From: Candidatus Fokinia solitaria
Lineage (GTDB): Bacteria; Pseudomonadota; Alphaproteobacteria; Rickettsiales; Midichloriaceae
Direction: 5' to 3'
Assembly (NCBI RefSeq): GCF_003072485.1
Contig: NZ_CP025989.1
Location: 690,001-722,000, forward strand
DNA: 32,000 bases
Translations under genes and position numbers: made by a program
In this document: piece after piece, positions 1 through 32,000 of the stretch
Position numbering within the stretch: position 1 is the stretch's first letter
How the letters are laid out: each line of letters begins with the position of its first letter
Notes under the pieces: model-generated
Database searches by the model: none
Seen by the model: the letters and a program-made list of their open reading frames with translations, nothing else
What the model was told of the DNA's origin: nothing

Positions 1-12
1 ATAGGAAATAGC

Positions 13-1365: not shown

Positions 1366-1697
1366 TTCGTCCTCGCTTCCAAGTACAGCAGCACGTATTT
1401 GGAAGCTTTCCATCTTACTTCTTCTTAGCTCCTGTTTTCCCTCTCATACTCCATTTATAGAACAATGTTCTTTTCTCTTCTACCTCTTATACTCTTCTTA
1501 CTATTATTTCTCTCTTCTGGCTTATACTTCTCTATAAATGCCGTTCAGAATCCTTTCTACCAACTCTCTCCTTTACTCATAATCCTTCCTTGCATCGCTT
1601 TAAGCTGGATTCTCCATAATGGTACTTCGAAAACTAAACAATCCTCTTTCTTAAATGGCATCGCTAATCATGACATCCTCACGACGTGTATACCAGC

Positions 1698-3563: not shown

Positions 3564-3632
3564 TACCGATTACGTTAGTACGATCACAGTATGTCTCATT
3601 ATTTGCTTAAAACAGCGAAATAAAAGATCTGA

Positions 3633-3662
3633 TTGGTGTTTTTTGTTTTCGTCTGCTATATA
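3633..3662 (+). promoter_or_regulatory. Candidate sigma70-type promoter for the HlyD-family gene
   Basis: TTGGTG (3633-3638), an 18-nt spacer, then TATATA (3657-3662), about 25 nt upstream of the ATG at 3688. Chance matches are common in AT-rich DNA. Confidence 0.25.
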
Positions 3663-3687
3663 CCGATCTTATGATTGATGTTATTTT

Positions 3688-4773
3688 ATGACATTTAACG
3701 GATTGCACTTTCTCCGCAATAAGTATTACGTAGTTGTGGTAGTACTTTCGATATTAGTTCTGTGGATGCTCTCTGGTGTATTCACCTCAAAGCATGGTGA
3801 AATGCCTCAACAAGATGAGCACAACTACTATAAGGTAGAAACATTCACTCCAGGCAAGCACGCTTCTACCTTGAAAGCATTTGGTATACTGGAAGCAAGC
3901 GATAAAATTCTACTCACTGCTGTAACTGGTGGAAAGGTACTAAAGGTGTTCGTACAGTCTGGCACTTATTTAAAGAAAGGAGGTAGCATACTAAAGGTAG
4001 AAGACGGAAGTGCTAAGGAAAGGCTAACTAAGGCAAATGCAGCATTAGCGAAAGCACAGCTTATATATGATTCGATATCCAATTTATACAATAAAGGCAG
4101 TGCATCGAAGTTTGAGATGACAGATGCAACTGAAAAATTAGAACTTGCTACAGCTGAGTTGAAAGATGCAGAAAAAGCACTAGACGATACAGTTGTAAAA
4201 GCGCCATTTGATGGCTTCGTAGATTTTATAAGCGTAGCAAAGGACGATATGATAGGATATGGTACAAATGGCAATAGAGTAGTTGGAGAATTCTATAAAA
4301 TAGGTGCGTTTAAAACAAAAGTATACCTTTCTCAAACAGAAGTAAGTCAAATTACTTATAATACTCCAGCAACTATATCCGTAGTAAACGGAAAAGGCGA
4401 AAGTGTCTCTTTAAACGGTATCATTACTTTTATCAGTAAAGTAGCGGCAAAAGACACAAAAGCATTTCTCGTTGAGATCGCTGTAAGTGATAGCAGAAAC
4501 AATTTGATGAATAATATTGACGCAACAGTCACTTTCAATCTTGTTTTTGATAATTGTATCTTAGTACCAAAATCAGCGCTTTCTATAGATGCTTCAGGTA
4601 ATTTTATTTTAAAATCAGTACAGAACAATAAAGTGCAGTCGCTTGTAGTGAAGGTAGTATTTGAGAAAGACGATTATATCGGAATACTATATGAAGATAC
4701 ATTGAATATAGTCACAGTAGGTGCGCAATACCTTACGGACGGCACTGTTATTGATGAGTCACAGAAGAAATAA
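3688..4773 (+). CDS. Efflux/secretion periplasmic adaptor (membrane-fusion protein, HlyD/AcrA family)
   Basis: N-terminal TM anchor (YYVVVVVLSILVLWMLSGVF). Lipoyl-like half motifs (G.V..V.V..G..L.KG) and the characteristic second half VKAPFDGFV. An alpha-hairpin segment rich in A/K/E/L lies between them, followed by a beta-barrel-like C-terminal part. No cognate pump gene is adjacent. Confidence 0.7.
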   Translation: MTFNGLHFLRNKYYVVVVVLSILVLWMLSGVFTSKHGEMPQQDEHNYYKVETFTPGKHASTLKAFGILEASDKILLTAVTGGKVLKVFVQSGTYLKKGGSILKVEDGSAKERLTKANAALAKAQLIYDSISNLYNKGSASKFEMTDATEKLELATAELKDAEKALDDTVVKAPFDGFVDFISVAKDDMIGYGTNGNRVVGEFYKIGAFKTKVYLSQTEVSQITYNTPATISVVNGKGESVSLNGIITFISKVAAKDTKAFLVEIAVSDSRNNLMNNIDATVTFNLVFDNCILVPKSALSIDASGNFILKSVQNNKVQSLVVKVVFEKDDYIGILYEDTLNIVTVGAQYLTDGTVIDESQKK

Positions 4774-4778
4774 ATATT

Positions 4779-5759
4779 TCAAAAATCTTTTAAATTATCC
4801 TTAGGTTTCGCGCATCGCATCCAATCGCTCCTTACTTTTACGTGTAGCTGTAACTCAACTCTTTTATCTAAAGTAGCTTCTATCTGTCTTGTAACTCTCT
4901 CCCTCAAAGACTTTATCATCTTGCCTCCTCTTCCTATAAGAATCATTTTATGAGACTCTCTCGTAGTGATAATATTTTGAGATATTTGTATTCCACAATC
5001 TTCAAATTCTCTCCATACTACAGTTTCTACCATGCATGAATAAGGCACCTCTTGATGCACTAAAAAATATATCTGTTCTCTCGTAATTTCTTCCGCAAGA
5101 ACCTTCTCAGATACATTCGTATATGCTAATTCATCAAAGCAACGGTAAGTCGGAGTACTATAAGAAGCACAAATATCTAATACATCGTCATAACAACTTG
5201 ATGTTACTGAATTCATTATGCACTTCATATTATACTTCTCCGACAATTCTTCTAGACACTTAGCCACCATATCACGCATTTCATACGGTATCAGATCGTA
5301 CTTTGATAATAGTAGTAACTTTTGCTTTTTGGAAAAATCGGTAAATTTCTTTTTCGTAGAAACAATATGTGGAAGCTTTTCCATTAAGGAAACAATATCG
5401 ATTAACTCTTTTTCAAGAATAGAGTAAACTGCAGCTGTCTCATTACGTATACGTTCTGCTGAAATCATAATCATCATCACATTACACCAAGAAAGTGCTT
5501 GCACTGCTTGCGTAAGTAAATACTCGCGTAACTGATATTTAGATGCTTCAAAAACGCCAGGCATATCAGCAAATAGCATAGCAATATCTCTATGCTTTAC
5601 CATTCCTACTACATTATCTCTTGTAGTTTGTGGCTTATGCGTAGCTATAGCAAGTTTTTGTCCTATGATGGCATTTAAAAGTGTTGATTTACCTGCATTC
5701 GGTGCTCCGCATATACCAATTTTCACACTCATGCATGGCGTAGTAGTATCTCTTATCAT
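4779..5759 (-). CDS. era: GTPase Era
   Basis: G1 GAPNAGKST, G2 PQTTRD, G3 DMPG, a G4-like SKYD (canonical NKxD), and a C-terminal KH domain (LIGRGGKMIKSL). An alternative start at MSVKIG (nt 5732) is possible. Confidence 0.85.
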   Translation of the reverse strand: MIRDTTTPCMSVKIGICGAPNAGKSTLLNAIIGQKLAIATHKPQTTRDNVVGMVKHRDIAMLFADMPGVFEASKYQLREYLLTQAVQALSWCNVMMIMISAERIRNETAAVYSILEKELIDIVSLMEKLPHIVSTKKKFTDFSKKQKLLLLSKYDLIPYEMRDMVAKCLEELSEKYNMKCIMNSVTSSCYDDVLDICASYSTPTYRCFDELAYTNVSEKVLAEEITREQIYFLVHQEVPYSCMVETVVWREFEDCGIQISQNIITTRESHKMILIGRGGKMIKSLRERVTRQIEATLDKRVELQLHVKVRSDWMRCAKPKDNLKDF

Positions 5760-5927: not shown

Positions 5928-8669
5928 TTGTCAAACTTCAAAAGTATCCGCTGCATCACTGGCATAATATTAGTTGTACTATCATTCTTACCAAGCACTA
6001 CCAGCGCTCGCCATCAAGGACAGTGCTACGCAGCAGATGATGTAAACGCAAGCAATACCGTTACAATATATTCTAATCCTCAAGAACTGATCTCTTCTGT
6101 GCCGCAAACACAGCAAGTCGCTCCATGGATAGACACAGGCTTGATATCAATAGGAGGCACAACTGCAGGCACATTTGCTATCACTGGCACTATACGTGGT
6201 TCATGGGGACCGCTTGGCAGTGCTGCTACTCCATGTAACTTGGTAGACTGTAATGTTAGCAATAGCACGGGATTTGGCAGCAATGAAGTAACAACAATAT
6301 GTCTTGTACAGGGCACACCTGGCATACAGCATACGGGGCAAAACGTGGTATTTACAAGTACCACTTATCCATGCATTTTATCAAATGGTATAGGACTATA
6401 TATGCTTATAACGGATGATTCAAACGGTTCATTCTCAGCAAATTACTCAGCGCAGCAAGCTATTAATTCAAATGATAACGTAGCACAACTTACGTCAAAT
6501 GCACTTGATCCAAATGCAGACATCTTATCTGCTTCTGCACCAATGAATGGAGAATATCTTGTGCCAACATGGCATATGAACGACTACGTTACTTCTTCTA
6601 CAAACGAAGTATCGCAATTTGCAATCAAAAGTGCAGTAAAGTGTCCAATGCTTCCAAGTACACTACAATGTGAAGAAATAAGCGTACCTGCAGGAAGAAT
6701 ATATTTGAAGATTGTAGACAGTTATTACGGCGATAACTACGGCTCTTACACAGTTACTTTTGATACTGGAGTATTTCAAGTAGGATTCTTATTTCGTGCA
6801 GTCCAAGCATTTGACACCATTCTTAGCAATAGCAGTAAGATAATCGCTACATATGTGATGCAGGCGCTACAGCCTATCTTCATAATTATACTTACTTTTT
6901 ACATCATGTGGTATGGCATCGCATTCGCAGTTGGCGCACTAGAAGTAAAAACTCACGATATGGTAATGAGAATGATCAAATTATGCACCATGAGTTTATT
7001 ATTTACTCCTTATGGTCTTTTCATTGTGGAAGCATATTTGATAGATCCGTTTTGGATGTTAGGAAGCGCAATGTCTGATATCATCTTAATGTCGGTACTA
7101 TTCAACGCCACTACTGGAGAAATTCCTACTCTTTCAACAGCAGCAGAAACTGTAATGAGTAAATTATGGTATATAGCAGTGTATGATGCAGTTCTTAATA
7201 TTTTATATTCTACGCCAATCAATGCTAAAATTTGGGGCATTTTATTCAGTTTGAAGTTTTACTACATACTGCTGTTATATGCTTTAACAATGGTATTGAC
7301 GCTTTCTATATTTAAGGCGGTCATATACTCTTTGGAGGCAATGATAAGATTCTATCTCGTAAAAATGGTATTTCCTCTATTCATGCTACTCAGTGTGATT
7401 CCTACATTAGAGGATTTTTTAACAACGCTTTTCAAACAGCTCACAGTGGTAGCAATCACACTAATACTAGTAGCGCTATGCTCTGCCTTGATGATAACAA
7501 TGCTCGATACATCGTTCCAATCTCTCTATAATTATACAGTTTGCTGGCGTTCTATCATCGATATTCCAGTATTAGCGCTAGTCAGATTCTTTATGCCTAC
7601 TCCTTATGCAGAAGCAAAGGAAGCGCTAAAATTTGACGTATATATGTACACTATCGTAACAGCTGCTCTATTTTATGAATTATTCAATAAATTAGGTGGA
7701 ATAATAGATAGTCTATCCAGTGTTACAACTGATATAGAAAAGATGATGAGTGGACGCACGGAAAAACTTTTTGAGAGTAAGATTAAAAGTAAGGTGAGGA
7801 GCGGTACATACAAAATACTCGCATATGCTGGAGATAAAACAATTGCAACTCCTTTATCGATACTCTTCTCTCCTCTAAAAGCACTTATTACGAAATTAAG
7901 AGGAAAAGGCGATCAATCAAAAATTTCACGAGATGGACTTTCAGGCGATTCCGCAGAAGCAGATACTCAAAAAGAGCACGAAGCACAACAATCTCGTGCG
8001 CAAAAAAAGAAACGTTCAGACTCATCGTCTGCTTCGCATCAGCATCAGCATCCGCATCACGGGCAAGAATCGCACTTACCGCCAGGAGATAATAGAGCAC
8101 TCTCAGAAGATGATCACGAATCTCAGTCGCATCATGCGCAAGAATCGCACTTACTACCGGGAGATAATAGGGTACTCTCAGAAGATGATCGCGAATCTCA
8201 TTCATATTCTCATAATCTAGAAAATGCTGATAGCTCTCTCTTCGATGATGATATGGAGGCGCATACTTCGAAACGTAGAAATACAAGACTTGGCAATCTT
8301 CAGCACGATAATGAAAATCTCAGTGTAGAGGAAAAACTTAATAAGCTGCGAGAGCAATTCGAAAATACCAAAAATAGAAAACAATCACATGTGAACAGAG
8401 ATGGAGAAGGTAGCAGTAGCGAAGAAAGTGGAGAATTTGCGGATAGAGAACATAATGTATTTCACGAAAATGCAGATTCTGCAGAAGATATGGTAATTCA
8501 TAGAGATAGCGGAAGTATGCAAAGTAAAAGTAATAGAAAATCCTCTCTAAGCAAGAGTTCTCCGGGCAAAAGTGATGATAGTTCTTCAAAAGGAAAAAAT
8601 AACAAGATAGCAAGAGCAAGGACAGTTACCGATGAATATGCTAATAATCATAAAAAGAAAAATTCATGA
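5928..8669 (+). CDS. VirB6/TrbL-like polytopic inner-membrane protein of a type IV secretion system, with a long disordered C-terminal extension
   Basis: 913 aa with a TTG start. Cleavable-looking signal peptide (IILVVLSFLPSTTSA). About 290 aa of hydrophilic N-domain, then about 8 hydrophobic helices (aa ~315-625), then about 290 aa of S/E/D/H/K-rich low-complexity tail. This matches the extended VirB6 paralogs of Rickettsiales. The call rests on architecture, not on an alignment. Confidence 0.5.
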   Translation: MSNFKSIRCITGIILVVLSFLPSTTSARHQGQCYAADDVNASNTVTIYSNPQELISSVPQTQQVAPWIDTGLISIGGTTAGTFAITGTIRGSWGPLGSAATPCNLVDCNVSNSTGFGSNEVTTICLVQGTPGIQHTGQNVVFTSTTYPCILSNGIGLYMLITDDSNGSFSANYSAQQAINSNDNVAQLTSNALDPNADILSASAPMNGEYLVPTWHMNDYVTSSTNEVSQFAIKSAVKCPMLPSTLQCEEISVPAGRIYLKIVDSYYGDNYGSYTVTFDTGVFQVGFLFRAVQAFDTILSNSSKIIATYVMQALQPIFIIILTFYIMWYGIAFAVGALEVKTHDMVMRMIKLCTMSLLFTPYGLFIVEAYLIDPFWMLGSAMSDIILMSVLFNATTGEIPTLSTAAETVMSKLWYIAVYDAVLNILYSTPINAKIWGILFSLKFYYILLLYALTMVLTLSIFKAVIYSLEAMIRFYLVKMVFPLFMLLSVIPTLEDFLTTLFKQLTVVAITLILVALCSALMITMLDTSFQSLYNYTVCWRSIIDIPVLALVRFFMPTPYAEAKEALKFDVYMYTIVTAALFYELFNKLGGIIDSLSSVTTDIEKMMSGRTEKLFESKIKSKVRSGTYKILAYAGDKTIATPLSILFSPLKALITKLRGKGDQSKISRDGLSGDSAEADTQKEHEAQQSRAQKKKRSDSSSASHQHQHPHHGQESHLPPGDNRALSEDDHESQSHHAQESHLLPGDNRVLSEDDRESHSYSHNLENADSSLFDDDMEAHTSKRRNTRLGNLQHDNENLSVEEKLNKLREQFENTKNRKQSHVNRDGEGSSSEESGEFADREHNVFHENADSAEDMVIHRDSGSMQSKSNRKSSLSKSSPGKSDDSSSKGKNNKIARARTVTDEYANNHKKKNS
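8058..8207 (+). repeat. 75-bp tandem duplication (25-aa unit x 2) in the VirB6-like C-terminal tail
   Basis: HGQESHLPPGDNRALSEDDHESQSH (8058-8132) is followed by HAQESHLLPGDNRVLSEDDRESHSY (8133-8207). I estimate about 85% nucleotide identity by eye. Confidence 0.9.
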
Positions 8670-9775: not shown

Positions 9776-10594
9776 ATGTTTAGGTGCGCGTCGTACTGTA
9801 TCGGCTCTGGATGCGATTTATTCGCATTCTCTGAAGTCTTCACCAGTATTGAAACGCCGGTGAGAGTTTGCAGTTCTGATGCAATTCATGTGACAAATTC
9901 GTCAAAAACTCAGAAGGAAATATTCGTTTTTTCCTACGGATGCGTGATATTCTGGAATTATTCCGAAGAAGAGGAGGCGCTTTTCTTGAAGAATCTGATC
10001 GAATACGTAGATGCGCCTCTTGAAAACTATCTCTCAGACTTATGCTACTACGTTGTACTAGAGGATGGTCCAACTAATATAGATATGGCAAGTGATGTAA
10101 TACAAATTTCTAAGAAGAATGACGACAATCCATATACTAAGTTGGCACTTTCTTATGGATTATCACAATCTGTTAAGCTGAGAGTATTCGAGATCTCAGT
10201 TTTCTCCTTGATAGAAGAGAACAAAAAAATCCCTCTTGAGTTGGTAAAAAGAGGATATATAAAGGTACCTAGAAGAGAACTTGCAAAAAAAATAGGAATG
10301 CTTTTTATGGAAAGAAGCGCAATAAATCTGAGTAATGATGTTTTAGATATTCCAGGATTTTTTTGGAAGAATCCGAAATATGAAAACGTCTATGATGCTT
10401 CTCGCAAATTCATGGATATTCAACAAAGGAGTGATAACTTAAACAGAAGACTCGCAATAATATATGAGTTATATGAGATATTGCGAGATGAGGTCAATCA
10501 CTCGCATTCTCTAAGATTAGAAATGATAATAATATTTCTGATATTTGTGGAAATGGTACTATCAATGGTCGAAATAATATCCAAATTCTTCTGA
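9776..10594 (+). CDS. RMD1/DUF155-family protein
   Basis: 272 aa. The core pattern (IFVFSYGCVIFWNYSEEEE...), the middle helical region and a single C-terminal TM helix (MIIIFLIFVEMVLSMVEII) match my recollection of the DUF155 (RMND1-like) family. No alignment was run. Confidence 0.5.
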   Translation: MFRCASYCIGSGCDLFAFSEVFTSIETPVRVCSSDAIHVTNSSKTQKEIFVFSYGCVIFWNYSEEEEALFLKNLIEYVDAPLENYLSDLCYYVVLEDGPTNIDMASDVIQISKKNDDNPYTKLALSYGLSQSVKLRVFEISVFSLIEENKKIPLELVKRGYIKVPRRELAKKIGMLFMERSAINLSNDVLDIPGFFWKNPKYENVYDASRKFMDIQQRSDNLNRRLAIIYELYEILRDEVNHSHSLRLEMIIIFLIFVEMVLSMVEIISKFF

Positions 10595-19522: not shown

Positions 19523-20800
19523 CTAAAATTTATAAGATAACTCAATTATACCATACAGTGATGTACTTCCGGATTTACTTATCGATGAAGGGGTGATTAC
19601 ATATGTTCTATCCGTCGATGATTTGGAAGCATTAAAAGTACCATATTGTGAACACTCTCTCACGACATCATTCTTCAATGTTGCATCTAATATTCCGCTA
19701 TTTTGAAAATTCTGCTCTATTTTAGCGCCAAAACTGACAATCACATTTCCATCAGTAATACGAATACCAGCTACTGCCGCTCCATACATTCCTGATACAT
19801 CATCTGCGGTAACTTTTCCTCGAATACGATAGCCCTCACTCTCTTCACAATCTCCTCTATCGATTATCCTTACGCTGGAACTCGACACATCAATAACATC
19901 TTTTAGAGAAGTATAGCTCATAATAGACCATCCTAACTGCCCTTCAACATATGGTATGATGTGAACATCACTCTCCGTGCTTAGCGGTAGCATAAGCAAT
20001 TTTGAACTTACGCCGAACATCATACCTCTTCCACTTAAGATATCTCCTGCAACAAATTTACTACCTAAAAATGCCCCCACAAGTACAGCAAATGTTTTAG
20101 ATTTCTGCACTTCTCTGCTAAGCGATAAGGTAAGATTATACAACGAAGCACCAACAACTCTATTTCTCTCTACAGTAGAGTTATCTATCAATTGCAATGA
20201 GTGTCCTATATTTCTGCCTATATCGATACCTATACCGATCTCATTTTTACACTCTACATCTTTGGAAGAACGCACTTCTCTCGATACTCCAGCATCTAAA
20301 GTTTTATTCGAATTGCTTATAGTTAAAGCATTATTACGATTATCTGTCGTAAATTTTGCCGCCGAATGACTAGCAACAACTACAGGAGTGCTATATTTTG
20401 CGATAGCTGCAGTAGATGCTTTTCTTAGCACAATAGCGCTATTCGAGATAGTGCTAGAAGGCTTCTTCTTAGCAGAGTGAATCTTTTTCTTATATATTTT
20501 CTTCATACGCTTTATCCTCGAAACAACTGCCACTTTCTTCTTGGCAATCTTTTTACGCTTAGTAGTTACAGATTTTTTTGTCGATTTCCTTATGGATTGC
20601 GTAGAGGAATATACATTAGTGAAAGTAGTAGAAGATCCTGTAAGATCTGCTTCTCCAGCACATACTTTATCATCGACTACGATATCATCTATATTACTTG
20701 CTGAGGCTACTTTTGCACCAGGATTTGCGTAAGCTACTTCCTCACGTACTTTAGGAATCAAAATAAATAATGATATCAATATTAAATAATATACTCTCAT
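19523..20800 (-). CDS. Outer-membrane beta-barrel protein (surface-antigen-like) with a lysine-rich N-terminal linker
   Basis: Signal peptide (YLILISLFILIPKVREEVAYA). aa 71-113 are about 50% Lys/Arg. The C-terminal ~250 aa show alternating hydrophobicity, an IPYVEGQLGW strand similar to WSP/Msp4-family strands, and a terminal ...ELSYKF (aromatic C-terminal OMP signature). Confidence 0.55.
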   Translation of the reverse strand: MRVYYLILISLFILIPKVREEVAYANPGAKVASASNIDDIVVDDKVCAGEADLTGSSTTFTNVYSSTQSIRKSTKKSVTTKRKKIAKKKVAVVSRIKRMKKIYKKKIHSAKKKPSSTISNSAIVLRKASTAAIAKYSTPVVVASHSAAKFTTDNRNNALTISNSNKTLDAGVSREVRSSKDVECKNEIGIGIDIGRNIGHSLQLIDNSTVERNRVVGASLYNLTLSLSREVQKSKTFAVLVGAFLGSKFVAGDILSGRGMMFGVSSKLLMLPLSTESDVHIIPYVEGQLGWSIMSYTSLKDVIDVSSSSVRIIDRGDCEESEGYRIRGKVTADDVSGMYGAAVAGIRITDGNVIVSFGAKIEQNFQNSGILDATLKNDVVRECSQYGTFNASKSSTDRTYVITPSSISKSGSTSLYGIIELSYKF

Positions 20801-20894: not shown

Positions 20895-21593
20895 CTACTT
20901 ATCATTTTTCTCTGCTTTCGCACTGTATTTGACGACATAAGCCGCTTTCAAAGCCGCATACTCATCAAGAGAGATATCATTAATCTCTTGAAGCAAATCT
21001 AAATTCTCATCAATTGCTACTATTATTTCACCAGAAGAAATCGCAATTAATGCACCAATTGGAAGTACGAAATTTAACGGATCTAATATAAGATCCATTG
21101 CAAGCGCAAACGTATCTCTCGAGCAAGATGGACCAAAAAGAGGTAGCATATTGTAATTTCCTGCACGAATACCCCATTTGGTAAACGTGACGGAAAATCC
21201 ATTTTTAATCTCCGCAATACCAATCTTTGAAGCAACATCGATAGTACCTAGCAATCCCGCTGTAGTATTAAACATGAATCGACACATACTTTGCGCAGCC
21301 GCTCTTGGATCGCCCTGTAATAATCCGTTCAAAGCGTATAATGGCTCTCTCAGATTATAAAAGAAGTTGTGTATAAAATTTCTATGATATTGCTTATGAT
21401 TGCCTCTTATTGCCTTCGCAATCGGGAAAAGGACTTTATCACCTAATACGGCATTGAATGCCATAGTATTTCTGTGCGTACTTTCGCATACATCATTCAG
21501 CTCACGATACGTATTTTCCGCTGCAAAAATATCATGCGATATCGCAATGCAATGCCATAAAAAAATGAGTGAAATAACAATTTTACCTAACAT
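20895..21593 (-). CDS. mlaA: MlaA/VacJ-family lipid-asymmetry maintenance protein
   Basis: The core NFFYNLREPLYALNGLLQGDPRAAAQSMCRFMFNTTAGLLGTIDVASKIG ... WGIRAGNYNMLPLFGPSCSRDT matches the MlaA signature (NFF.NL.EP....N..LQG.......RF..NTT.G..G..DVA; GPY...P..GPS..RD). The start is set at Met-81 of the listed ORF (nt 21593). The longer form would overlap the virB8 promoter and start. Confidence 0.85.
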   Translation of the reverse strand: MLGKIVISLIFLWHCIAISHDIFAAENTYRELNDVCESTHRNTMAFNAVLGDKVLFPIAKAIRGNHKQYHRNFIHNFFYNLREPLYALNGLLQGDPRAAAQSMCRFMFNTTAGLLGTIDVASKIGIAEIKNGFSVTFTKWGIRAGNYNMLPLFGPSCSRDTFALAMDLILDPLNFVLPIGALIAISSGEIIVAIDENLDLLQEINDISLDEYAALKAAYVVKYSAKAEKNDK

Positions 21594-21601
21594 TCGAATA
21601 T

Positions 21602-21630
21602 TTGACTTTCTAAAAGTGTATCCATAGAAT
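21602..21630 (+). promoter_or_regulatory. Near-consensus sigma70-type promoter upstream of virB8
   Basis: TTGACT (21602-21607), a 17-nt spacer, then TAGAAT (21625-21630). An AAGGA Shine-Dalgarno-like element at 21664-21668 lies 7 nt before the ATG at 21676. Confidence 0.5.
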
Positions 21631-21675
21631 TGTAGTGCTACTTGCACCGGTAAGATAGATCTTAAGGAAACGTCA

Positions 21676-22323
21676 ATGCAAAACAAAGAACAAAACGCAC
21701 CTACATGGTATAAAGAATCATACGAAATAGCCATTGTGCAACGTAATGTTTTAGCAGTACTAGTTGTGTTATGCTTACTTGGATTAATAGCTTCCGCGCT
21801 TTTAATAAAACATATCAAGAATACAGAATCCATAGAGCCATTTGTCGTAGAAATCGATAGTATTACTGGTATTCCTACAGTCGTAAAATCTGTTCCAGTT
21901 GAAGAATATTCAACAAGTGTCGCAATGAAGAGAGCATTAGTAATGCAATATATCAGAGCAAGAGAGGAGTATATTCCTCAAACATTCAGATATCAGTACA
22001 AAATCGTAGTACCATCAATGTCATCTCCCGATTCTTACGATAGCTATGTGACAAAAAATACTCCTTCTAATCCTCAAAGTCCATCTGCAGTATATGGAGA
22101 AAAGGGGATTATTACGGTAGATTGGAAATCTATAGTATTTTTAAATGATAACACCGCACAGGTAAGAATAAATGTGAATTATCCTGGTAAAACGCCTGTA
22201 GGGAAATTGGTACTGGTAGCATTTGAATTTAAGAACAATAGACCACTTTCAGCAGAACAAGCCCTTGCTAATCCATTGAATTTTTACGTCACTCTCTATA
22301 GAGTCACTGACGAAAATGCATAG
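21676..22323 (+). CDS. virB8: Type IV secretion system protein VirB8 (stand-alone paralog)
   Basis: Short cytoplasmic N-terminus and one TM (VLAVLVVLCLLGLIASALLI). The periplasmic domain begins with EPFVVEIDSITGIPTVV (compare EPYVIRVDKTTG in Agrobacterium VirB8). It also carries YIRAREEY and the terminal VirB8 motif NPLNFYVTLYRVTDE (canonical NPLGF.V..YR.D.E). Confidence 0.9.
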   Translation: MQNKEQNAPTWYKESYEIAIVQRNVLAVLVVLCLLGLIASALLIKHIKNTESIEPFVVEIDSITGIPTVVKSVPVEEYSTSVAMKRALVMQYIRAREEYIPQTFRYQYKIVVPSMSSPDSYDSYVTKNTPSNPQSPSAVYGEKGIITVDWKSIVFLNDNTAQVRINVNYPGKTPVGKLVLVAFEFKNNRPLSAEQALANPLNFYVTLYRVTDENA

Positions 22324-26574: not shown

Positions 26575-27270
26575 ATGATCAGAGATTTTTTCGTAATCGC
26601 CAACTGGAAAATGAGTGGCTCATTGCTATTCATACAACAGATGAACACATTTATTGCATCATGGCAAGAAATAAAGGACGTCGCGTTTCGTAAAAATTCC
26701 GTACGCATTAAGATTGTAATATGTCCTCCACATCCCTATATCTCATCACTACATGATGTTATTACATCACTCGATTCAGATCTGCTTTACTTGGGTGCGC
26801 AAGATTGTAGCAAGTATGAGAATGGCTCTTATACAGGAGAAGTAAGCGCTAAAGCGCTGAAAGAATTTGGATGCTCATATGTAATACTTGGCCATCAAGA
26901 AAGAAGGCAAATGCATGAAAATCATGATATCATTACACAGAAAATTGAAGTAGCCAAGAAATATGATATCGTAACAATACAATGCGTAAATGATCACGAC
27001 ATACAAGACAAAGTTGCTTTATCTGGCGATATAATAGCATATGAGCCTGCACAACATATTGGTGCTACAGAATGCGAATCTATGGATAAAATATCATCAA
27101 TTACGCAATTAGTAAAAAGTACCGAAAAGCGCAAAGTAATATACGGAGGCGCCGTCAACTCTGATAATGTGCATCTCTTATACCAAATCACTGAATTAGA
27201 TGGCATACTCGTCGGAAGAAGTAGCCTCGATTATACAGAATTCACGAGGCTGCTATATAACGTAGCATAA
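26575..27270 (+). CDS. tpiA: Triosephosphate isomerase (short, divergent)
   Basis: ANWKM (catalytic Asn/Lys), GHQERR (catalytic His; canonical GHSERR), AYEP (catalytic Glu), YGGAVN and LVGRSSL. 231 aa, against about 250 for typical TpiA. Confidence 0.85.
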   Translation: MIRDFFVIANWKMSGSLLFIQQMNTFIASWQEIKDVAFRKNSVRIKIVICPPHPYISSLHDVITSLDSDLLYLGAQDCSKYENGSYTGEVSAKALKEFGCSYVILGHQERRQMHENHDIITQKIEVAKKYDIVTIQCVNDHDIQDKVALSGDIIAYEPAQHIGATECESMDKISSITQLVKSTEKRKVIYGGAVNSDNVHLLYQITELDGILVGRSSLDYTEFTRLLYNVA

Positions 27271-27373
27271 TCGTCATACATATAGTTTTCTTCTCATATC
27301 TTCATTTAGCAGAATCTAGATAGTTGCTTTTTGTAATAGTCAAAACACTCTACAAACTTATTAATAAACACAT

Positions 27374-30300
27374 TTAGATCCCCTCCTCTTGATGAGGCCC
27401 TCCAACCACAAGATTTATCTCCTGTCCGAAGAGATTATCCGGATCGTGTGGCACTTCCTCATAATTAACTTCCTCATGATTAACTTCCTCATTATCGTTA
27501 ATGTCATGAAAAACTTCTTGTACTGAGCTATCCCGATTACTACCATCAGCTTGCGGTACTGCAATATCCCGATTACTGCCAACTTTCCGAGCACCACTGA
27601 CTGGTAAAGGAATCATCCTAGAACTACCGAAATTTGGTATCTCCTCAGCCATAAAGATATTATTTGCATCTCCGATATCAGAACCACTTGCAACACTTGA
27701 AACATCTATATCATCCTCTTTTTGCAATAGTGGTGTAGAGAAAATATCGAAAGAAGAGGTGCCATCATTGTACTTTCTCTCTTCTAAAGAGATTTTATTA
27801 TAAGCGGCTATTTGTAACATTTCGTTATATAATTTCACCCCTTCTGAGGCAATATCTTTAGCATTAGGATCTTTCTTCAACATCTGCATCTGTGCATTTA
27901 ATACAACAATTTTTCTATCATGCTCCAACGATAGATCTTCTATTTTATGCAAATGATCTATACGTTTCTTCTGAAGCGATGAAAAGAGCGCATGCTCTCT
28001 TTTATGAGGCTTTACTTGCAATAAAAATTCTGTTGTTCTGTCGCTTTCATCTGCATATGCACTTTCCTCTTCCTCATACTGTAATCCTAATGCAATCAGA
28101 TCTTTTTTTCGCGCATCTCCTCCTCTTTGAATCTCCTGCAACTTCTGCTTCAATCCCTCAACTTCTATAATCCCTTTATCGAATTTCATCTTTTGCATAC
28201 CTGCATCGCGCACCTCTTCTGCATACGTCACGCCATTAACAAAACTGATGGTAGCAGCGTCAAAATCAGCAGACTTCTGATTACGTAGTGCGATTTGATC
28301 ACCACTATACTTACCATCTACAATTTTCCCTGCACCATCCTTAACAGGTCGTAAGCTTTTGATATATTCTTCTGCAGCATTCAATACATTTTCATACTTG
28401 CTAGATAATGCATCTCTCTCGTCCTTTATAAAAGACGCTGCATCTTGAGCATTTTGATCCAACGTCAATTGAATAGCATTAGATTGGCAATTCAAATCCT
28501 CTCGTTTCCTAACGTTTTCTTCACTCTTCTCTGATAGCTTTTTTTCTTCCTCTCTTATTTCATTAATCTCATCATGCAGCTTATTCATTCTATCAGCAAC
28601 CACTTTTATCTCATCATCATGCACTACACCGTCTTGTATCAGAAGTTGATACTCTTTATCATTTTTAGGCATGCCGTGCTTATTTAATGCTACATGTATC
28701 ACATCATTAAGTTGAGCAGCTAAAATATACTCACGTGCATCAAATGCTTTAGTCAGATAATGTAATAGTTTTCGCATCTCCTTCACTACATTCTTGATCT
28801 CACTCTCTAATACATATTCTTTTCTCTCTAACGTACGTATTGCTCCATCACAAGTTAATAAAGCATTTTCATCATACAATACTCCAAACTGCTTTGCATG
28901 CTGCGCTAGAGTTGTAATTTGCTTGAATTTTTCACGTACTTCAGGGAGAGAAGTGTCTTTACGTATAATTACTTTTTCATAAATTTTGGCAGTTCTCGTA
29001 AAGCCTTTTAATGAAATCACATTTTCCAATATCTTTCTGGCTTCACTATTACCGTAAAGTATAGAATTTTTATTCAAATAATCGCTATTAACTGCAGCGA
29101 GAAAATACTCTTTATCATCTGGACCTAAATGATCGCGACGTAATGGAAGGCACGTAGTACTTTTATACATTGAGATCTTATCCGTTATTTCGAGAAGCTC
29201 TTGCTTTAAACGTTGTTGCTCTATTTTTGATAATTCCACTTGTGCTGAAAGGATATTCTGTCTTTCAAAGCTTTCTGTCTCCTTCCTGAGAATAGCATCA
29301 CCTTCCTTCTCTAGAAGCATACTATTCTCTGCATGCACATCAGCTTTAAATTCATTCTCTATTCGCCACATTTGGTTATCTATCTCATCATAAAATCCCG
29401 GCTCATTGGCTTGAATTTTTAATTTTGCATTATTGGCTATCTCCAGCTTACACTTTACAATAAAATCATTTATCTCGTTTTCTTCTCTATAAGAAGCGAG
29501 ACGTAGCACTTCTTGAGCCCTTACTTGCTCCGATAGCTCTATCATCACTGTTGTTCTGTCAATTACACTCTGCTGACGCACCGCTGCTTTTTCATTCAGT
29601 ACTCTTATACCCTCTTGTAACGCTGCATGTTCTTTCTGAAGATTTAGCAGTTCTTTTGAGTAGCGCGCATGCTCTTCTTTACGCGAAACTTCATCATCAA
29701 TTGGCATTCCAATATCTCTTAACTTTTCCTCCAACAAATTGAGATATAGAGATGATATAATAGGGATATCTGAAGAAATATTAAATTCAACTTTTATAGC
29801 TCGCAACTCGAGTGCTATAATTTTCTCCTGCACAGCTAATATTTCAGCGTCTGAAGCGCCATTGTCTAACAATCTTCTTTTTTCTTGCTGCATTTGCGGC
29901 AATTCCGGATACTGTAAGGTAAACTTCCCCTTCAATGCATTATCATACTGACGATTATTCAGTTGTAATATCACATCTCTTTGCATTAATTTTATTCCTT
30001 GCTCAGATGCTGCTTTTTCTAATGAACTTTTTGTTTGGTCTTTTTGGATCGACTGCGCTGTAATCATGCTTTGTTTTAATCCAATCAGTACTTGCAACTT
30101 CGGATCTTGGAAAAAAATACTGCCTTCTACACTATAACCAGCTTCCATTACTCTGATCATATCATCGACATCTACCATCACTTTATTCACTTTTTGCTCA
30201 TATTCTTTCGAAGTAGATTGAAACTTCTTTGCTAGCACCCTACTCTGCTGCGAAAGAGATGATACTTCTGGTTCTGTTCCTGTCTCTGAATTTGGTATTT

Positions 30301-32000
30301 TCAACTGCGAACCTCCTTTTCGCGCTGAGCTTTGCGAAGTTTGCACTATCTTGCGCTGCATTCTATCATGAAAATCTTTTCTAGCATTACGTTCTTCAGC
30401 GAGTTCAGATATATTCTTCGCTTTCTTGAAAGCATCATATAATTGTTTTTGCTCCGCGCTAAAAGCATTGTCATTCTCGATCATAAGAGAATTTAGCTCA
30501 GATATTTTCTGAGTAAGTGCGATTTGATTTTTGTCTAGTTCTATAACATCTTTATTCATTAGATTAATTTTTTCCTGATATTCTTTCAATATCTCTTGAT
30601 CTGTCTCATGCATTCTCTTGTATTCCTTTTGCGTTTTCTTCATCACAGTATACGTCTGCGTCTCGCTCTGATATCGCTCACTTACTTCTCGTTTTTTTAT
30701 GAGAGATTTGTCCAGCACCTTCATTACTGCGAATTGCCGTATTTCTGGTGACGTTGCTGCTGGCTGTATACTTCCTTCTAATATTTTTTTATTGTTCTCT
30801 AATCGCTGCACATAAGCATCCTGCAGAGGCAGCAGTTTTTGGAGCTTGTCTGATATGATTTTCTTTTTATACGCTTCAGTATAAAGATTTACGCATTCAT
30901 CTGTAATATCTGGGACGCCATGTTTCATCATGTTTATATTATCCGTGCCTATTACTGCTCTCTCCTCCTCCAATATTGCGCCTCGTTCGTCATACATAAG
31001 CTCGAGCTTTTGTTCTGATACAACTATAACATCCTGCACTACCTTTAGCTTCTCGAGAGTCGAATCATGTATTTCCTTTGCCGCATCTACAACGGTTTTT
31101 TCAGTAATCTTCATGATTCCTAATTTCTTCTGACATGCTAGAATAAATGCACGTAACGCAGAATCGTACTCTTGCATTAATACTGCTTCCATCGTCTCGT
31201 CTATTGTATCTTGAGACTGAAACCTTCTAATTTTCACTCTCGATTGATCCAAATCGCTCAAAGCTTTCTGAGTATCTGCATCAGATATAACGGGATTATT
31301 TTTTTGAATTTCATCTACTATGTCGCTAAAATTTGAATCACTAACTGGCTTTAATATTTCTAGCTTTTTTGTATTATCACTTATTTCGTTCGTTATTTCC
31401 GATCGCTTCTTCTTTAGATGCTGCCATCTCTCGTCTTGCTCTAGACTACGAAAAGGACGTTCGTCTAATTCTTTATATTCCACATTCATCGTCTTCAGCG
31501 ACTGCTCATCAGCGTCAACTTTGCGCTGTAAAACTAGTAATTCACTCAAGTTCTGTAACTTTTTATAATAGCCACTACTTGCGGCATCACTTGCATCCTC
31601 AGCATCTAATATCTTTTTCTTCTGGTCAAGAGTATACTGTAACAACTCTTCTTCGTCCATTTTTTTCCCTTTCTCATCCGATACTAGGTCTATTCTCTTG
31701 TCTATTTTTTTTTGCTCTTCTAGATAAAACATGCGAGCAGCTCGCACTTTTCCTATCTCCTCGGATAGCTCATTACCCCCGAACCTTTCATTTATGGACG
31801 TAAGCTCATGCTGTGCTATATCTTGCAGGTTACTCGTCTTTATCGTAGAAAGAGATGATTCTTCCATCTGTATAAGTTGAGTATGTAACGAAGATGCTTC
31901 TTTCTTTATCTGTAGCAGCATTGCACCATTTGACAACGTAACTTCGCCGCCCTCTTTTTTCTCAGCATCTTCTACTGTTTTTAGCTCATTCTCAGCACTT
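27374..32000 (-). CDS. Giant E/K/Q-rich coiled-coil protein (hypothetical; effector or surface-protein candidate), N-terminus beyond the window
   Basis: The reading frame is open from the window edge (nt 32000) to the stop at 27374. That gives at least 1,541 codons; the listed 1,520-aa ORF merely starts at an internal TTG. Composition is dominated by E, K, Q, L and I with heptad-like periodicity. I recognise no TM segment, signal peptide or enzymatic motif. The acidic C-terminus carries micro-repeats. Confidence 0.75.
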   Translation of the reverse strand, partial: SAENELKTVEDAEKKEGGEVTLSNGAMLLQIKKEASSLHTQLIQMEESSLSTIKTSNLQDIAQHELTSINERFGGNELSEEIGKVRAARMFYLEEQKKIDKRIDLVSDEKGKKMDEEELLQYTLDQKKKILDAEDASDAASSGYYKKLQNLSELLVLQRKVDADEQSLKTMNVEYKELDERPFRSLEQDERWQHLKKKRSEITNEISDNTKKLEILKPVSDSNFSDIVDEIQKNNPVISDADTQKALSDLDQSRVKIRRFQSQDTIDETMEAVLMQEYDSALRAFILACQKKLGIMKITEKTVVDAAKEIHDSTLEKLKVVQDVIVVSEQKLELMYDERGAILEEERAVIGTDNINMMKHGVPDITDECVNLYTEAYKKKIISDKLQKLLPLQDAYVQRLENNKKILEGSIQPAATSPEIRQFAVMKVLDKSLIKKREVSERYQSETQTYTVMKKTQKEYKRMHETDQEILKEYQEKINLMNKDVIELDKNQIALTQKISELNSLMIENDNAFSAEQKQLYDAFKKAKNISELAEERNARKDFHDRMQRKIVQTSQSSARKGGSQLKIPNSETGTEPEVSSLSQQSRVLAKKFQSTSKEYEQKVNKVMVDVDDMIRVMEAGYSVEGSIFFQDPKLQVLIGLKQSMITAQSIQKDQTKSSLEKAASEQGIKLMQRDVILQLNNRQYDNALKGKFTLQYPELPQMQQEKRRLLDNGASDAEILAVQEKIIALELRAIKVEFNISSDIPIISSLYLNLLEEKLRDIGMPIDDEVSRKEEHARYSKELLNLQKEHAALQEGIRVLNEKAAVRQQSVIDRTTVMIELSEQVRAQEVLRLASYREENEINDFIVKCKLEIANNAKLKIQANEPGFYDEIDNQMWRIENEFKADVHAENSMLLEKEGDAILRKETESFERQNILSAQVELSKIEQQRLKQELLEITDKISMYKSTTCLPLRRDHLGPDDKEYFLAAVNSDYLNKNSILYGNSEARKILENVISLKGFTRTAKIYEKVIIRKDTSLPEVREKFKQITTLAQHAKQFGVLYDENALLTCDGAIRTLERKEYVLESEIKNVVKEMRKLLHYLTKAFDAREYILAAQLNDVIHVALNKHGMPKNDKEYQLLIQDGVVHDDEIKVVADRMNKLHDEINEIREEEKKLSEKSEENVRKREDLNCQSNAIQLTLDQNAQDAASFIKDERDALSSKYENVLNAAEEYIKSLRPVKDGAGKIVDGKYSGDQIALRNQKSADFDAATISFVNGVTYAEEVRDAGMQKMKFDKGIIEVEGLKQKLQEIQRGGDARKKDLIALGLQYEEEESAYADESDRTTEFLLQVKPHKREHALFSSLQKKRIDHLHKIEDLSLEHDRKIVVLNAQMQMLKKDPNAKDIASEGVKLYNEMLQIAAYNKISLEERKYNDGTSSFDIFSTPLLQKEDDIDVSSVASGSDIGDANNIFMAEEIPNFGSSRMIPLPVSGARKVGSNRDIAVPQADGSNRDSSVQEVFHDINDNEEVNHEEVNYEEVPHDPDNLFGQEINLVVGGPHQEEGI
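27453..27497 (-). repeat. 15-bp in-frame micro-repeat x 3 (EEVNH/EEVNY/EEVPH) near the 3' end of the giant gene
   Basis: acttcctcat recurs at 27453, 27468 and 27483 (period 15). A second pair, atcccgattact (encoding GSNRD), recurs about 36 bp apart at roughly 27530-27580. Confidence 0.8.

Follow-up and report, generated by a model that had tools for sequence, protein, structure and literature searches.

A giant, predicted all-helical orphan protein shared by the two sequenced Fokinia species

What does a gene of ~17 kb do in a genome of 837 kb, the smallest described for any Rickettsiales as of 2018? We analyzed a window of 32,000 nucleotides from Candidatus Fokinia solitaria (contig NZ_CP025989.1, positions 690,001 to 722,000), a member of the Midichloriaceae rather than the Anaplasmataceae with which an earlier note on this DNA had drawn a comparison. 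As that note described, a minus-strand frame starting at 27374 runs off the window, with 1,541 codons and no stop up to the edge. Its translation is identical to residues 4120–5660, the C-terminal 27%, of the product of Fsol_00664 (P0026; AWD33442.1 / WP_108673453.1), annotated 'hypothetical protein'. The size first given, more than 1,540 residues, holds as a lower bound but greatly understates the complete protein, which has 5,660 amino acids, a mass of 646 kDa and a pI of 5.0. The gene (16,983 nt) takes up ~2% of the genome, and its remaining 5' 12.4 kb lie past the window edge. A TTG start at 31936 in the list of open reading frames is an artefact of start-picking by the ORF tool. The parts of the gene within the window are:

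27374..32000, minus strand: 3' part of Fsol_00664, residues 4120–5660 and the TAA stop (27374–27376); open frame, translation match
27737..31999, minus strand: window share of the collinear helical core, residues 4120–5540; BLASTP, identity 23–37% per 100 residues
29654..29896, minus strand: second conserved helical patch, residues 4821–4901; conservation and AlphaFold2
29024..29143, minus strand: best-conserved island of the window part, LRRDHLGPDDKEYFLAAVNSDYLNKNSILYGNSEARKILE, residues 5072–5111; sliding-window identity of 63% to Candidatus Fokinia cryptica
28697..29056, minus strand: predicted compact helical domain, residues 5101–5220 (641–760 of AlphaFold2 model m33baad27562b; block pLDDT 59–86)
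27377..27775, minus strand: acidic tail, residues 5528–5660; pLDDT 22–31, no helix by DSSP after model residue 1067

The window part of Fsol_00664 is a native coding region. At a stop probability of 0.072 per codon, the chance of 1,541 stop-free codons is log10 P = -50, and the RSCU correlation with the housekeeping genes of the window is 0.86 in frame versus 0.49 and 0.74 out of frame, those genes themselves ranging from 0.60 to 0.92. The only homolog found with HMMER among 1.84 billion representatives is a 4,423-residue protein (P0027) of F. cryptica; the exhaustive phmmer search, queried with residues 4320–5519, matched the protein itself and its F. cryptica counterpart only. A single BLASTP HSP (29.7% identity) aligns residues 1326–5540 collinearly with residues 44–4365 of P0027, and over these ~4,200 residues the two are 32% identical with 6% gaps (~29% identical for the whole window fragment, residues 4120–5660). 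The LRRDHLGPDDKEYFLAAVNSDYLNKNSILYGNSEARKILE island carries a near-invariant EYFLAA[VI]NSDYL..NSILYGNS motif. In the second patch, residues 4821–4850 are modeled with moderate confidence (pLDDT 68–75), and the island SDIPIISSLYLNLLEEKLRDIGMPIDDEVSRKEEHARYSK (residues 4862–4901) is 55% identical to F. cryptica. The residues best kept between the species are Trp (67%), Tyr (60%) and Leu (58%), the least kept are Ala, Val, Thr, Ser, Gln and Asp (18–27%, with Ala, Val and Thr at ~19%), and hydrophobic character is preserved at 77% of positions.

Between the two species, the neighboring tpiA shows 67% identity, compared with 32% for the giant protein. Judged by these alignments, the giant protein is evolving much faster than tpiA, yet its frame stays open. 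A collinear ortholog in the only other sequenced Fokinia, combined with the conservation of Trp, Tyr and Leu, indicates purifying selection on the gene and not decay, in agreement with the earlier suggestion that a reduced genome keeps such a gene through selection. Frameshifts or stops in relatives, named beforehand as signs of decay, were looked for, and the sole known ortholog has an undisrupted frame. Since the core is kept, with conservation falling on aromatic and aliphatic residues, we take the product to be a folded, selected protein, neither a spacer nor a pseudogene. One might still suspect a chance frame, an annotation or assembly artefact, or a decaying, non-functional relic, as the gene has no known domain, its models are of low confidence, and it goes undiscussed in the published genome paper. 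That reading is effectively refuted by the chance probability (P ~1e-50 for the window part alone), the native codon usage, the selective conservation of hydrophobic residues, a genome closed with PacBio and Illumina reads, and a collinear ortholog open over 4,423 codons where tpiA has diverged to 67% identity. The restriction to one genus may be due to rapid divergence and need not mean that the gene is young, since with only 32% identity between the two Fokinia species, any orthologs from other genera would be undetectable.

On the searches made, the giant protein is without a detectable relative, domain or fold match outside Fokinia. Pfam, NCBIfam, PADLOC, PHROGs and PDB sequences gave zero matches across the whole protein, and scans of genomes, metagenomes and viral contigs found no relatives. 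A word-index search found none either, but it also missed the query protein itself, which weakens its negative results. The protein lacks a signal peptide, TM helix, lipobox and RTX repeats; the highest 19-residue Kyte-Doolittle mean in the window part is 0.89, which agrees with the absence of a TM helix reported before. Neither Walker A nor HExxH occurs, so the impression that the protein lacks a catalytic motif or known domain was borne out, and on its sequence it is most likely non-enzymatic. Foldseek returned no significant fold match. Among its top, non-significant matches (E >= 0.03, TM <= 0.1) were the coiled-coil elbows of cohesin and MukB, and condensin; the talin R13 bundle also appeared at non-significant scores.

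Could the protein be an SMC/MukB/Rad50-like chromosome-organizing ATPase, with its heads in the N-terminal part missing from the window? The appearance of cohesin and MukB elbows and condensin among the top, non-significant Foldseek matches is what speaks for this. We rejected this possibility, which the earlier note had named as a refutation, as the least probable of the readings considered: the full 5,660 residues contain no Walker A and match neither SMC nor AAA families in Pfam, and the predicted helices do not reach the length that paired 50-nm arms would need.

The product had been characterized as almost entirely E/K/Q/L-rich and heptad-like, which overstates the case: these four residues make up 37%, the entropy is 4.0 bits, and a global 3.5-residue periodicity is absent. 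GCN4-like heptad scores occur in ~3% of 35-residue segments of the window part (0.3% in shuffles), and in the full protein ~19.5% of residues fall within such heptad segments (2–4% in shuffles); the term coiled coil thus fits only about one-fifth of the residues. Two AlphaFold2 models are of low confidence (mean pLDDT 42 and 48) and therefore usable for secondary structure only; they contain 71% and 82% helix and zero β-strand. Their helices are mostly 15–55 residues long with medians of 25 and 19.5, and the proposed likeness to SMC or myosin tails does not suit helices of median length 20–25 residues. Short helices split by loops suggest, in these models, chains of helical bundles and not a single rod. 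Residues 5101–5220 are the sole long confident stretch of model m33baad27562b and overlap the conserved island (5072–5111) at its 3' end.

Along the protein, an N-terminus of ~150 residues with ordinary composition is followed by an acidic low-complexity region outside the window, with a tandem array (residues 312–696) of acidic 108-residue copies up to 97% identical. These acidic repeats occur in F. solitaria only and are missing from the F. cryptica ortholog. Next come a heptad-rich stretch (~750–1100), a basic, Ser/Asn/Gln-rich linker, the core of ~4,200 residues with α-helices only and scattered coiled-coil-like segments, and an acidic tail of ~130 residues that is predicted to be disordered. 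The description of the protein as non-repetitive holds for the window part, where chunked BLAST and profile-profile comparison gave no larger repeat, but not for the whole protein with its 108-residue array. Profile-profile comparison also detected a cryptic ~100-residue repeat at residues 3090–3580; for most of the protein it revealed no regular repeat. The tiny C-terminal repeats reported earlier are present: GSNRD twice and EEVNHEEVNYEEV, a 15-bp x 2.7 repeat at 27453–27492 (Tandem Repeats Finder) within the acidic tail. The C-terminus was also correctly described as acidic, unlike basic T4SS signals: the last 120 residues (5541–5660) have a pI of 4.1, the last 41 lack Lys and Arg, and the net charge over the last 50 is -14, compared with -10 in F. 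cryptica. This tail is among the least conserved parts of the protein (20–23% identity, many gaps).

Whether the protein leaves the cell is a question on which the neighboring genes also bear:

26575–27270, plus strand: tpiA, neighbor of the giant gene; 100% identical to F. solitaria
27271..27373, no strand: intergenic spacer of 103 bp where the 3' ends of tpiA and the giant gene converge
21676–22323: VirB8 (Pfam E = 1.6e-34)
5928–8669: candidate VirB6-like multi-TM protein (TrbL E = 0.67, sub-threshold)
3688–4773: membrane-fusion protein, RND-type, not HlyD-type

No intrinsic-terminator-like hairpin was detected in the 103-bp spacer. Two T4SS components were said to share the window; one of them, VirB8, is firm, and the other is no more than a sub-threshold candidate resembling VirB6. 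VirB8 lies 5 kb from the giant gene, with lipA, an MFS transporter, thyX and tpiA between them; the giant gene is flanked by housekeeping genes, and within the window it shows no operon-like linkage to T4SS genes. Export as a T4SS substrate has VirB8 and possibly the VirB6-like protein in its favor, and some T4SS effectors are likewise helix-rich orphans. The T4SS is also conserved almost universally across Rickettsiales (PMC10847448). We nevertheless consider this route improbable, as the C-terminus is strongly acidic in both species, the gene is unlinked to T4SS genes, and the published T4SS signal criteria do not single out the protein. Type IVA secretion uses basic or hydrophobic signals, and to our knowledge 646 kDa is several times the size of any T4SS effector.

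The reading we tentatively prefer, plausible without being probable, is that the giant protein is a putative exported, non-enzymatic, elongated scaffold that faces the host. Lineage-specific helix-rich orphans of obligate intracellular bacteria are often effectors, and the largest exported bacterial proteins known to us are type I substrates. Should the protein be exported, the rvh type IV system would be a less plausible route than a one-step export of the type I kind, with an unfolded substrate and dependence on the C-terminus, given how large, acidic and cysteine-poor the protein is and that it has no N-terminal signal; the two orthologs have pI values of 5.0 and 5.7 and 0.46–0.52% Cys, and acidic pI, low Cys, tandem repeats and the absence of an N-terminal signal peptide or TM helix are listed traits of type I substrates (PMC10225607). 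Neither ortholog is singled out by the composition published as a mark of T1SS signals in Rickettsiales: in the C-terminal 50–60 residues the LDAVTSIF share is 0.38 in F. solitaria (protein mean 0.49; 6th percentile) and 0.46 in F. cryptica (mean 0.47). Export is opposed by the absence of LDAVTSIF enrichment and RTX repeats, the poorly conserved C-tail and the unlinked secretion genes. F. solitaria lives as an endosymbiont in the cytoplasm of Paramecium; it lies naked in the cortex, where fine fibrils form a ribosome-free rim around it and at times a fibrillar tail is present (PMC4701390), and both species tend toward the host trichocyst layer, F. cryptica being reported inside a vacuole and without a halo (PMC5118934). 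As F. cryptica has the core yet no reported halo, the core and the fibrillar rim cannot simply be the same thing. An exported scaffold would leave the bacterium and act on the cortical cytoplasm of the host or within it, where it might, for example, position or shield the symbiont within the trichocyst layer; in that case the acidic repeat extension found only in F. solitaria would be a module that faces the host in this species alone.

A protein that lacks a signal peptide would by default stay in the bacterial cytoplasm, and a cytoplasmic or envelope-associated scaffold of the bacterium itself (cytoskeletal, nucleoid or cell-shape) is possible, though on balance rather unlikely. It would fit the lack of a signal peptide, TM helix, lipobox or recognized T1SS or T4SS signal, the all-α prediction with scattered heptad segments as in bacterial coiled-coil-rich proteins, and the housekeeping genes on both flanks. 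A core conserved in spite of differing host compartments, naked versus in a vacuole, also fits a role inside the bacterium. The length would be suitable too: an extended helix would span ~850 nm (5,660 x 0.15 nm), or a few hundred nm as bundles, comparable to the 1.2-µm cell (1.2 x 0.25–0.35 µm; PMC4701390). On the other side, the protein evolves much faster than tpiA (32% versus 67% identity), and near-identical acidic tandem repeats are more typical of host-exposed Rickettsiales proteins (PMC10225607), while inclusions or filaments inside F. solitaria cells are unreported (PMC4701390). The known coiled-coil proteins of bacterial cytoskeletons are several times smaller and are usually conserved across a wider range of bacteria.

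How does the protein compare with known systems? With SMC, MukB and Rad50 it shares great helical length and superficial Foldseek listings, but it has no ATPase heads, hinge or Walker A and is not a member. Spectrin, plakin and talin rods are similar as long chains of short-to-medium helices, and the cryptic repeat at residues 3090–3580 recalls them; unlike them, the Fokinia protein has no regular repetition along most of its length, no significant sequence or fold match, and no detected actin-binding or other terminal domains. Crescentin, Scy/FilP and Mycoplasma HMW2 are coiled-coil-rich bacterial cytoskeletal proteins. They resemble it in being all-α and non-enzymatic, with heptad segments, no export signal, and a fast-evolving sequence with a conserved hydrophobic pattern, but the Fokinia protein is 3–10x larger, its helices are mostly short, and only ~20% of its residues are heptad-like.

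The giant RTX adhesins LapA, SiiE and MpIBP, which type I systems secrete, consist of Ig-like repeats arranged in β-rich chains and carry GGxGxD nonapeptides close to the C-terminus. The Fokinia protein shares with them a length of thousands of residues (~0.5 MDa and above), acidity, few cysteines and no Sec signal, and its N-terminal part is distinct from the rod and could in principle be a retention module; it differs in having no β-strand or RTX motif and almost no internal repetition. LapA is also covered as such a substrate in PMC10225607. Non-RTX type I effectors of the same order include Ank200 and the tandem-repeat proteins of Ehrlichia (PMC10225607), which are similar in acidic pI, few Cys, no N-terminal signal and orphan sequence, and the N-terminal extension of F. 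solitaria has acidic Ser/Glu-rich tandem repeats like theirs. The Fokinia protein is ~10x larger and without sequence similarity to them, its C-terminus shows no LDAVTSIF enrichment, and the F. cryptica ortholog has no repeats. While tandem-repeat domains dominate the Ehrlichia proteins, the Fokinia protein is mostly a conserved, predicted folded all-α core.

The reverse-strand frame at 27374-31999 reads through 1,541 sense codons, open from the window edge to a TAA at 27374-27376. With a per-codon stop probability of 0.072, taken from the window base composition, the chance of such an open frame is ~1e-50. Its RSCU correlation with the pooled window housekeeping genes is 0.86, compared with 0.60-0.92 for single housekeeping genes and 0.49 and 0.74 for the two wrong frames of the giant gene. 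These values confirm what the earlier note had described as an uninterrupted minus-strand frame running off the window: it is a native, genuine coding region that continues past the window edge. The translation matches exactly residues 4120-5660 of P0026, the full-length F. solitaria protein (AWD33442.1 / WP_108673453.1, annotated 'hypothetical protein Fsol_00664'). The size of more than 1,540 aa proposed from the window was right as to a large protein, but the true length is 5,660 aa, of which only the last 27% is visible here, illustrating how greatly a window-limited reading can understate a feature. The whole gene is 16,983 nt long, or 2.0% of the genome, and encodes a 646 kDa product with a pI of 5.0. 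Its ortholog P0027 (WPX98166.1, 4,423 aa), a 'hypothetical protein' of Ca. Fokinia crypta/cryptica, is encoded by 1.6% of the genome of that species.

F. solitaria lives as an endosymbiont in the cytoplasm of Paramecium. At 837 kb its genome was, as of January 2018, the smallest on record for Rickettsiales, and it has neither the Krebs cycle nor LPS synthesis nor flagella (PMC5905368). Spending 2% of a shrinking genome on one domain-less gene points to a major lineage-specific function. Fsol_00664 is not mentioned in the genome paper (PMC5905368), and no paper citing its accessions was found. The family is not Anaplasmataceae, with which a parallel was once drawn: Fokinia is placed in Ca. Midichloriaceae (Rickettsiales). 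The segments of P0026 are as follows.

Segments of P0026, with the basis of the assignment in brackets where one applies
1 to ~150: ordinary composition; neither a homolog nor a match in the PDB
~150 to 700: strongly acidic (pI 4.05), holding 108-residue units arrayed in tandem at 312-696
~750 to 1100: the part richest in heptad-like sequence, with the longest segment (114 aa) at 947-1060
~1110 to 1230: basic linker rich in Ser/Asn/Gln/Lys (sequence inspection)
1326 to 5540: conserved helical core (collinear alignment with P0027)
5528 to 5660: predicted disordered acidic tail (AlphaFold2 model, charge)

Neither P0026 nor P0027 contains a hydrophobic segment of transmembrane grade (the maximum 19-residue Kyte-Doolittle mean is 1.42), and neither N-terminus resembles a Sec signal peptide, with acidic residues falling within the first 15 positions of both. 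A motif scan of the two proteins found no RTX nonapeptide, LPxTG, Walker A, HExxH or twin-arginine motif; the remaining matches, one CxxC and two RGD tripeptides in P0026, are not considered meaningful in a chain of 5,660 residues. When all parts of both proteins were searched against Pfam, NCBIfam, PADLOC and PHROGs, no family scored above threshold, and sequence and profile searches of the PDB gave noise-level matches only (E >= 0.025). A match to DUF7623 in Pfam (E = 0.065, 13.8 bits against a 27-bit cut-off) fell below threshold and was dismissed as noise, as were matches to the Rho-GEF7 coiled coil.

Internal repeats were sought by chunked BLAST and by hhalign all-against-all comparison of 300-residue blocks. 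Copies of the 108-aa unit in the acidic array are up to 97% identical, and the annotated P0027 contains no such array. A cryptic zone of ~100-residue repeats lies at ~3090-3580 of P0026 (hhalign, 3191-3298 vs. 3463-3576, E = 1.5e-5), with a recurring Y..A...Y.DL.N.L-like motif and a weak counterpart at ~2000-2390 of P0027. Neither method detected other internal repetition in P0026. Repetition in the window part is limited to a 15-bp x 2.7 repeat, located in the tail, and to three short arrays that are weaker. The description of the protein as non-repetitive, with only tiny repeats, thus holds for the window part but fails for the full protein, whose acidic array lies outside the window.

In the window part E+K+Q+L make up 37%, the entropy is 4.0 bits, and a 3.5-residue periodicity is not seen globally. 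The a/d-position score reaches the level of GCN4 in ~3% of its 35-residue windows (0.3% in shuffles), and over the full protein heptad-like windows hold 19.5% of residues (2-4% in shuffles). AlphaFold2 was run twice on the two-species alignment, each time on a 1,200-residue segment of P0026.

AlphaFold2 models of P0026 segments
m33baad27562b, P0026 4461-5660: mean pLDDT 42.5; helix 71%; 27 helices of median length 25; 4 helices of at least 60 aa
mb4a922ab09ad, P0026 2481-3680: mean pLDDT 48.3; helix 82%; 40 helices of median length 19.5; 0 helices of at least 60 aa

Model confidence is low, so the three-dimensional arrangement is not trustworthy. The predicted secondary structure is unambiguously all-helical, with no β-strand in either model and a longest predicted helix of 89 residues across the two. 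In m33baad27562b, one compact helical domain is confidently predicted (pLDDT 59-86); it spans P0026 ~5101-5220 (window 28697-29056) and adjoins the island EYFLAA[VI]NSDYL..NSILYGNS, which is the best conserved in the window. Foldseek searches of the PDB with both models returned nothing significant, only generic long-helix proteins (best E 0.03 and 0.2, TM-scores <= 0.1). On these predictions, the protein is best described as a long chain of helices or helical bundles with scattered coiled-coil segments. The earlier note had seen heptad character over nearly the whole length, which was overstated; the scattered heptad-like segments are real. An SMC- or myosin-tail-like rod, also suggested there, does not agree with median helix lengths of 19.5-25 and the lack of global periodicity. 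Among giant lineage-specific proteins from intracellular bacteria, Fsol_00664 is unusual in being all-helical as modeled, essentially non-repetitive, devoid of known domains and huge relative to the genome.

P0026 1326-5540 aligns with P0027 44-4365 as a single collinear HSP with 32% identity and 6% gaps. Identity is fairly even along the core, at 18-43% per 100 residues, and rises to as much as 70% in sharper islands measured over 40 residues. Conservation is highest for Trp (67%), Tyr (60%), Leu (58%) and Phe/Ile (45%) and lower for Glu/Lys (~41%), polar residues (~27%) and Ala/Val/Thr (~19%), and the hydrophobic class is retained at 77% of positions. This is the pattern that marks helices packed together and held under purifying selection. 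The product of the adjacent tpiA is 100% identical to the triosephosphate isomerase of F. solitaria and 67% identical to that of F. cryptica, and a decaying gene is ruled out because 13-17 kb have been kept open in two AT-rich genomes at that divergence. The proposal that selection maintains the gene is therefore upheld by the collinear open ortholog of 4,423 aa and its preferentially conserved hydrophobic residues, and the scenario of decay that would have undone it did not materialize. With the frame open and the hydrophobic class conserved, a non-functional relic or an artefact is highly improbable. The giant protein changes much faster than tpiA, which is compatible either with a host-facing protein or with constraint on the hydrophobic pattern alone.

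The distribution was examined by an exhaustive phmmer search of 1.84 billion representative proteins with window residues 201-1400, covering P0026 4320-5519 only. There were exactly two matches, P0026 itself (100% identical) and P0027 (29% identical, E = 3e-95). Pattern-based scans of 185,579 species-representative genomes, JGI metagenome contigs and viral contigs found no relatives, with few usable patterns and limited sensitivity. Since identity is only 32% within the genus, orthologs in other genera are probably undetectable, and 'genus-restricted' may mean fast-evolving instead of young.

The giant gene shares the window with ordinary housekeeping genes, among them tpiA, thyX, an MFS transporter, lipA, mlaA-like, radC, mtaB, addA-like, bamD, dksA, era and ftsH, and with the features listed here.

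Other features of the window
1-1365, forward: orphan open from base 1 and running off the left edge; VVQEVAKEEEK units are encoded by a tandem repeat at 142-319 (33 bp x 5.4, 95% matches), after which come a stretch rich in E/K and a C-terminal part with Cys and His; no Pfam or NCBIfam match
3688-4773: membrane-fusion protein, RND-type and not HlyD-type
5928-8669, forward: 913-aa orphan that starts with a signal-like segment and has TM-like segments clustered at aa 300-530
9776-10594, forward: clear member of DUF155 / RMND1-Sif2-Sif3-Mrx10 (Pfam E = 8e-44)
19523-20800, reverse: 425-aa orphan with a signal-peptide-like N-terminus, then an extremely Lys-rich stretch (e.g. KKSVTTKRKKIAKKKVAVVSRIKRMKKIYKKKIHSAKKK); no family match
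20895-21833, reverse: mechanically called mlaA ORF, overlapping VirB8 by ~160 bp
21676-22323, forward: VirB8 (Pfam E = 1.6e-34), solitary between the mlaA-like gene and lipA, with no other recognisable vir gene nearby
27892-28170, 31320-31568 and 31369-31803, forward: antisense ORFs of 82-144 aa within the giant gene

The antisense ORFs are most likely by-products of the purine-rich codon bias of the giant gene and not genes. Given the overlap with VirB8, the real mlaA start is probably further downstream. The DUF155 family is best known from eukaryotic mitochondria, which makes a member noteworthy in so reduced a Rickettsiales genome. Paralogy between the giant protein and the other window orphans, including that at 1-1365, was rejected (blastp E > 1).

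Two T4SS components had been reported in the window. VirB8 is firm; the second, the 913-aa ORF, is sub-threshold only, its multi-TM block aligning to TrbL/VirB6 at E = 0.67, and by sequence its product may be a very divergent rvhB6-type component. Neither adjoins the giant gene, from which they are separated by housekeeping genes, and the gene context gives no support to either a type I or a type IV route. The known type IVA secretion signals are basic or hydrophobic C-termini. Both giant orthologs are strongly acidic there, with a net charge over the last 50 residues of -14 in F. solitaria, which has no K or R in its last 41, and -10 in F. cryptica. They do not fit such signals, for which the earlier note had already called the acidic C-terminus atypical, and to our knowledge a T4SS substrate of such size would be unprecedented; on both grounds an rvh T4SS effector is improbable. 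The C-termini themselves differ, ...HQEEGI in F. solitaria and ...YDAVV in F. cryptica. The latter has three hydrophobic residues after an acidic one, which resembles the motif at the very C-terminus of some protease-type T1SS substrates and is a lead only.

We infer export from lifestyle and general features. Our preferred reading, held tentatively and somewhat short of even odds, is that the protein would be an exported, non-enzymatic, host-facing scaffold, for which a type I-like route would be more plausible than type IV. A scaffold within the bacterial cytoplasm is a less probable but serious competitor. F. solitaria is found naked in the cortex of its host, among trichocysts (PMC4701390), surrounded by a ribosome-free rim of fine fibrils. 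F. cryptica also tends toward the trichocyst layer, but without a halo and inside a vacuole (PMC5118934). Because F. cryptica has the core yet no halo, the conserved core cannot simply be the fibrillar rim, and the rim was rejected as the main explanation of the protein. The 1,325-residue N-terminal extension with its acidic repeats is found in F. solitaria only; the F. cryptica ortholog, as annotated, lacks it. The extension tracks the naked, rimmed lifestyle, an intriguing correlation in two species only, resting on the annotated F. cryptica start. Going beyond the preferred exported scaffold, we consider it a speculative idea, rather unlikely as it stands, that the protein represents a new class of giant non-RTX all-α exported fibrous protein, which would build or organise the F. 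solitaria rim and 'tail' or tether the symbiont among Paramecium trichocysts, the core being the fibre or tether and the acidic extension an adaptation to naked cytoplasmic life.

If exported, the protein would be an unusual substrate, of giant-RTX-adhesin size yet all-helical and essentially non-repetitive, and it may account for the fibrillar rim and for the position of the symbiont in the cortex. If cytoplasmic, it would rank with the largest structural proteins known from bacteria. In both cases it offers a defined target for antibodies, in a Paramecium symbiosis that can be cultured.

The protein compares with known systems as follows. SMC/MukB/Rad50 proteins have N- and C-terminal halves of an ABC-type ATPase head with a Walker A motif, and two very long antiparallel coiled-coil arms with a hinge, whereas the helices of the giant protein have medians of 19.5-25 and a maximum of 89 residues. 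ATPase heads had been envisaged in the N-terminus missing from the window, but the full protein has no SMC match, [AG]xxxxGK[ST] occurs nowhere in P0026 or P0027, and neither has a Pfam/NCBIfam match. Foldseek matches to SMC elbows reach only E >= 0.03 and TM <= 0.1, and the probability of an SMC/MukB-like ATPase is close to nil. Myosin-tail and tropomyosin rods have continuous heptads over most of their length, which the giant protein does not show. Spectrin and talin rods consist of recognisable tandem bundle repeats, unlike the giant protein, in which hhalign found a single internal repeat pair and Pfam no match (talin R13 was matched by Foldseek at E = 0.26). The giant RTX adhesins of type I systems carry GGxGxD nonapeptides near the C-terminus and long arrays of Ig-like β-sandwiches; neither ortholog has GG.G.D, and the models are without β-strand in a core that is nearly repeat-free. 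Type I substrates are acidic in pI, poor in cysteine or free of it, and tandemly repeated, and their C-terminal signal is not cleaved and is enriched in LDAVTSIF residues (PMC10225607). Unlike the non-RTX T1SS effectors of Rickettsiales (TRP/Ank200), the giant proteins show no LDAVTSIF enrichment at the C-terminus. In F. solitaria these residues make up a fraction of 0.38 of the last 50, which is at the 6th percentile, the mean over the protein being 0.49; in F. cryptica the fraction is 0.46 and the mean 0.47. As to tandem repeats, the F. solitaria protein has its acidic array, and none is present in the F. cryptica ortholog as annotated. What both giant proteins share with these effectors is their acidic, cysteine-poor composition, with a pI of 5.02 and 5.68 and a Cys content of 0.46% and 0.52% for P0026 and P0027, respectively.
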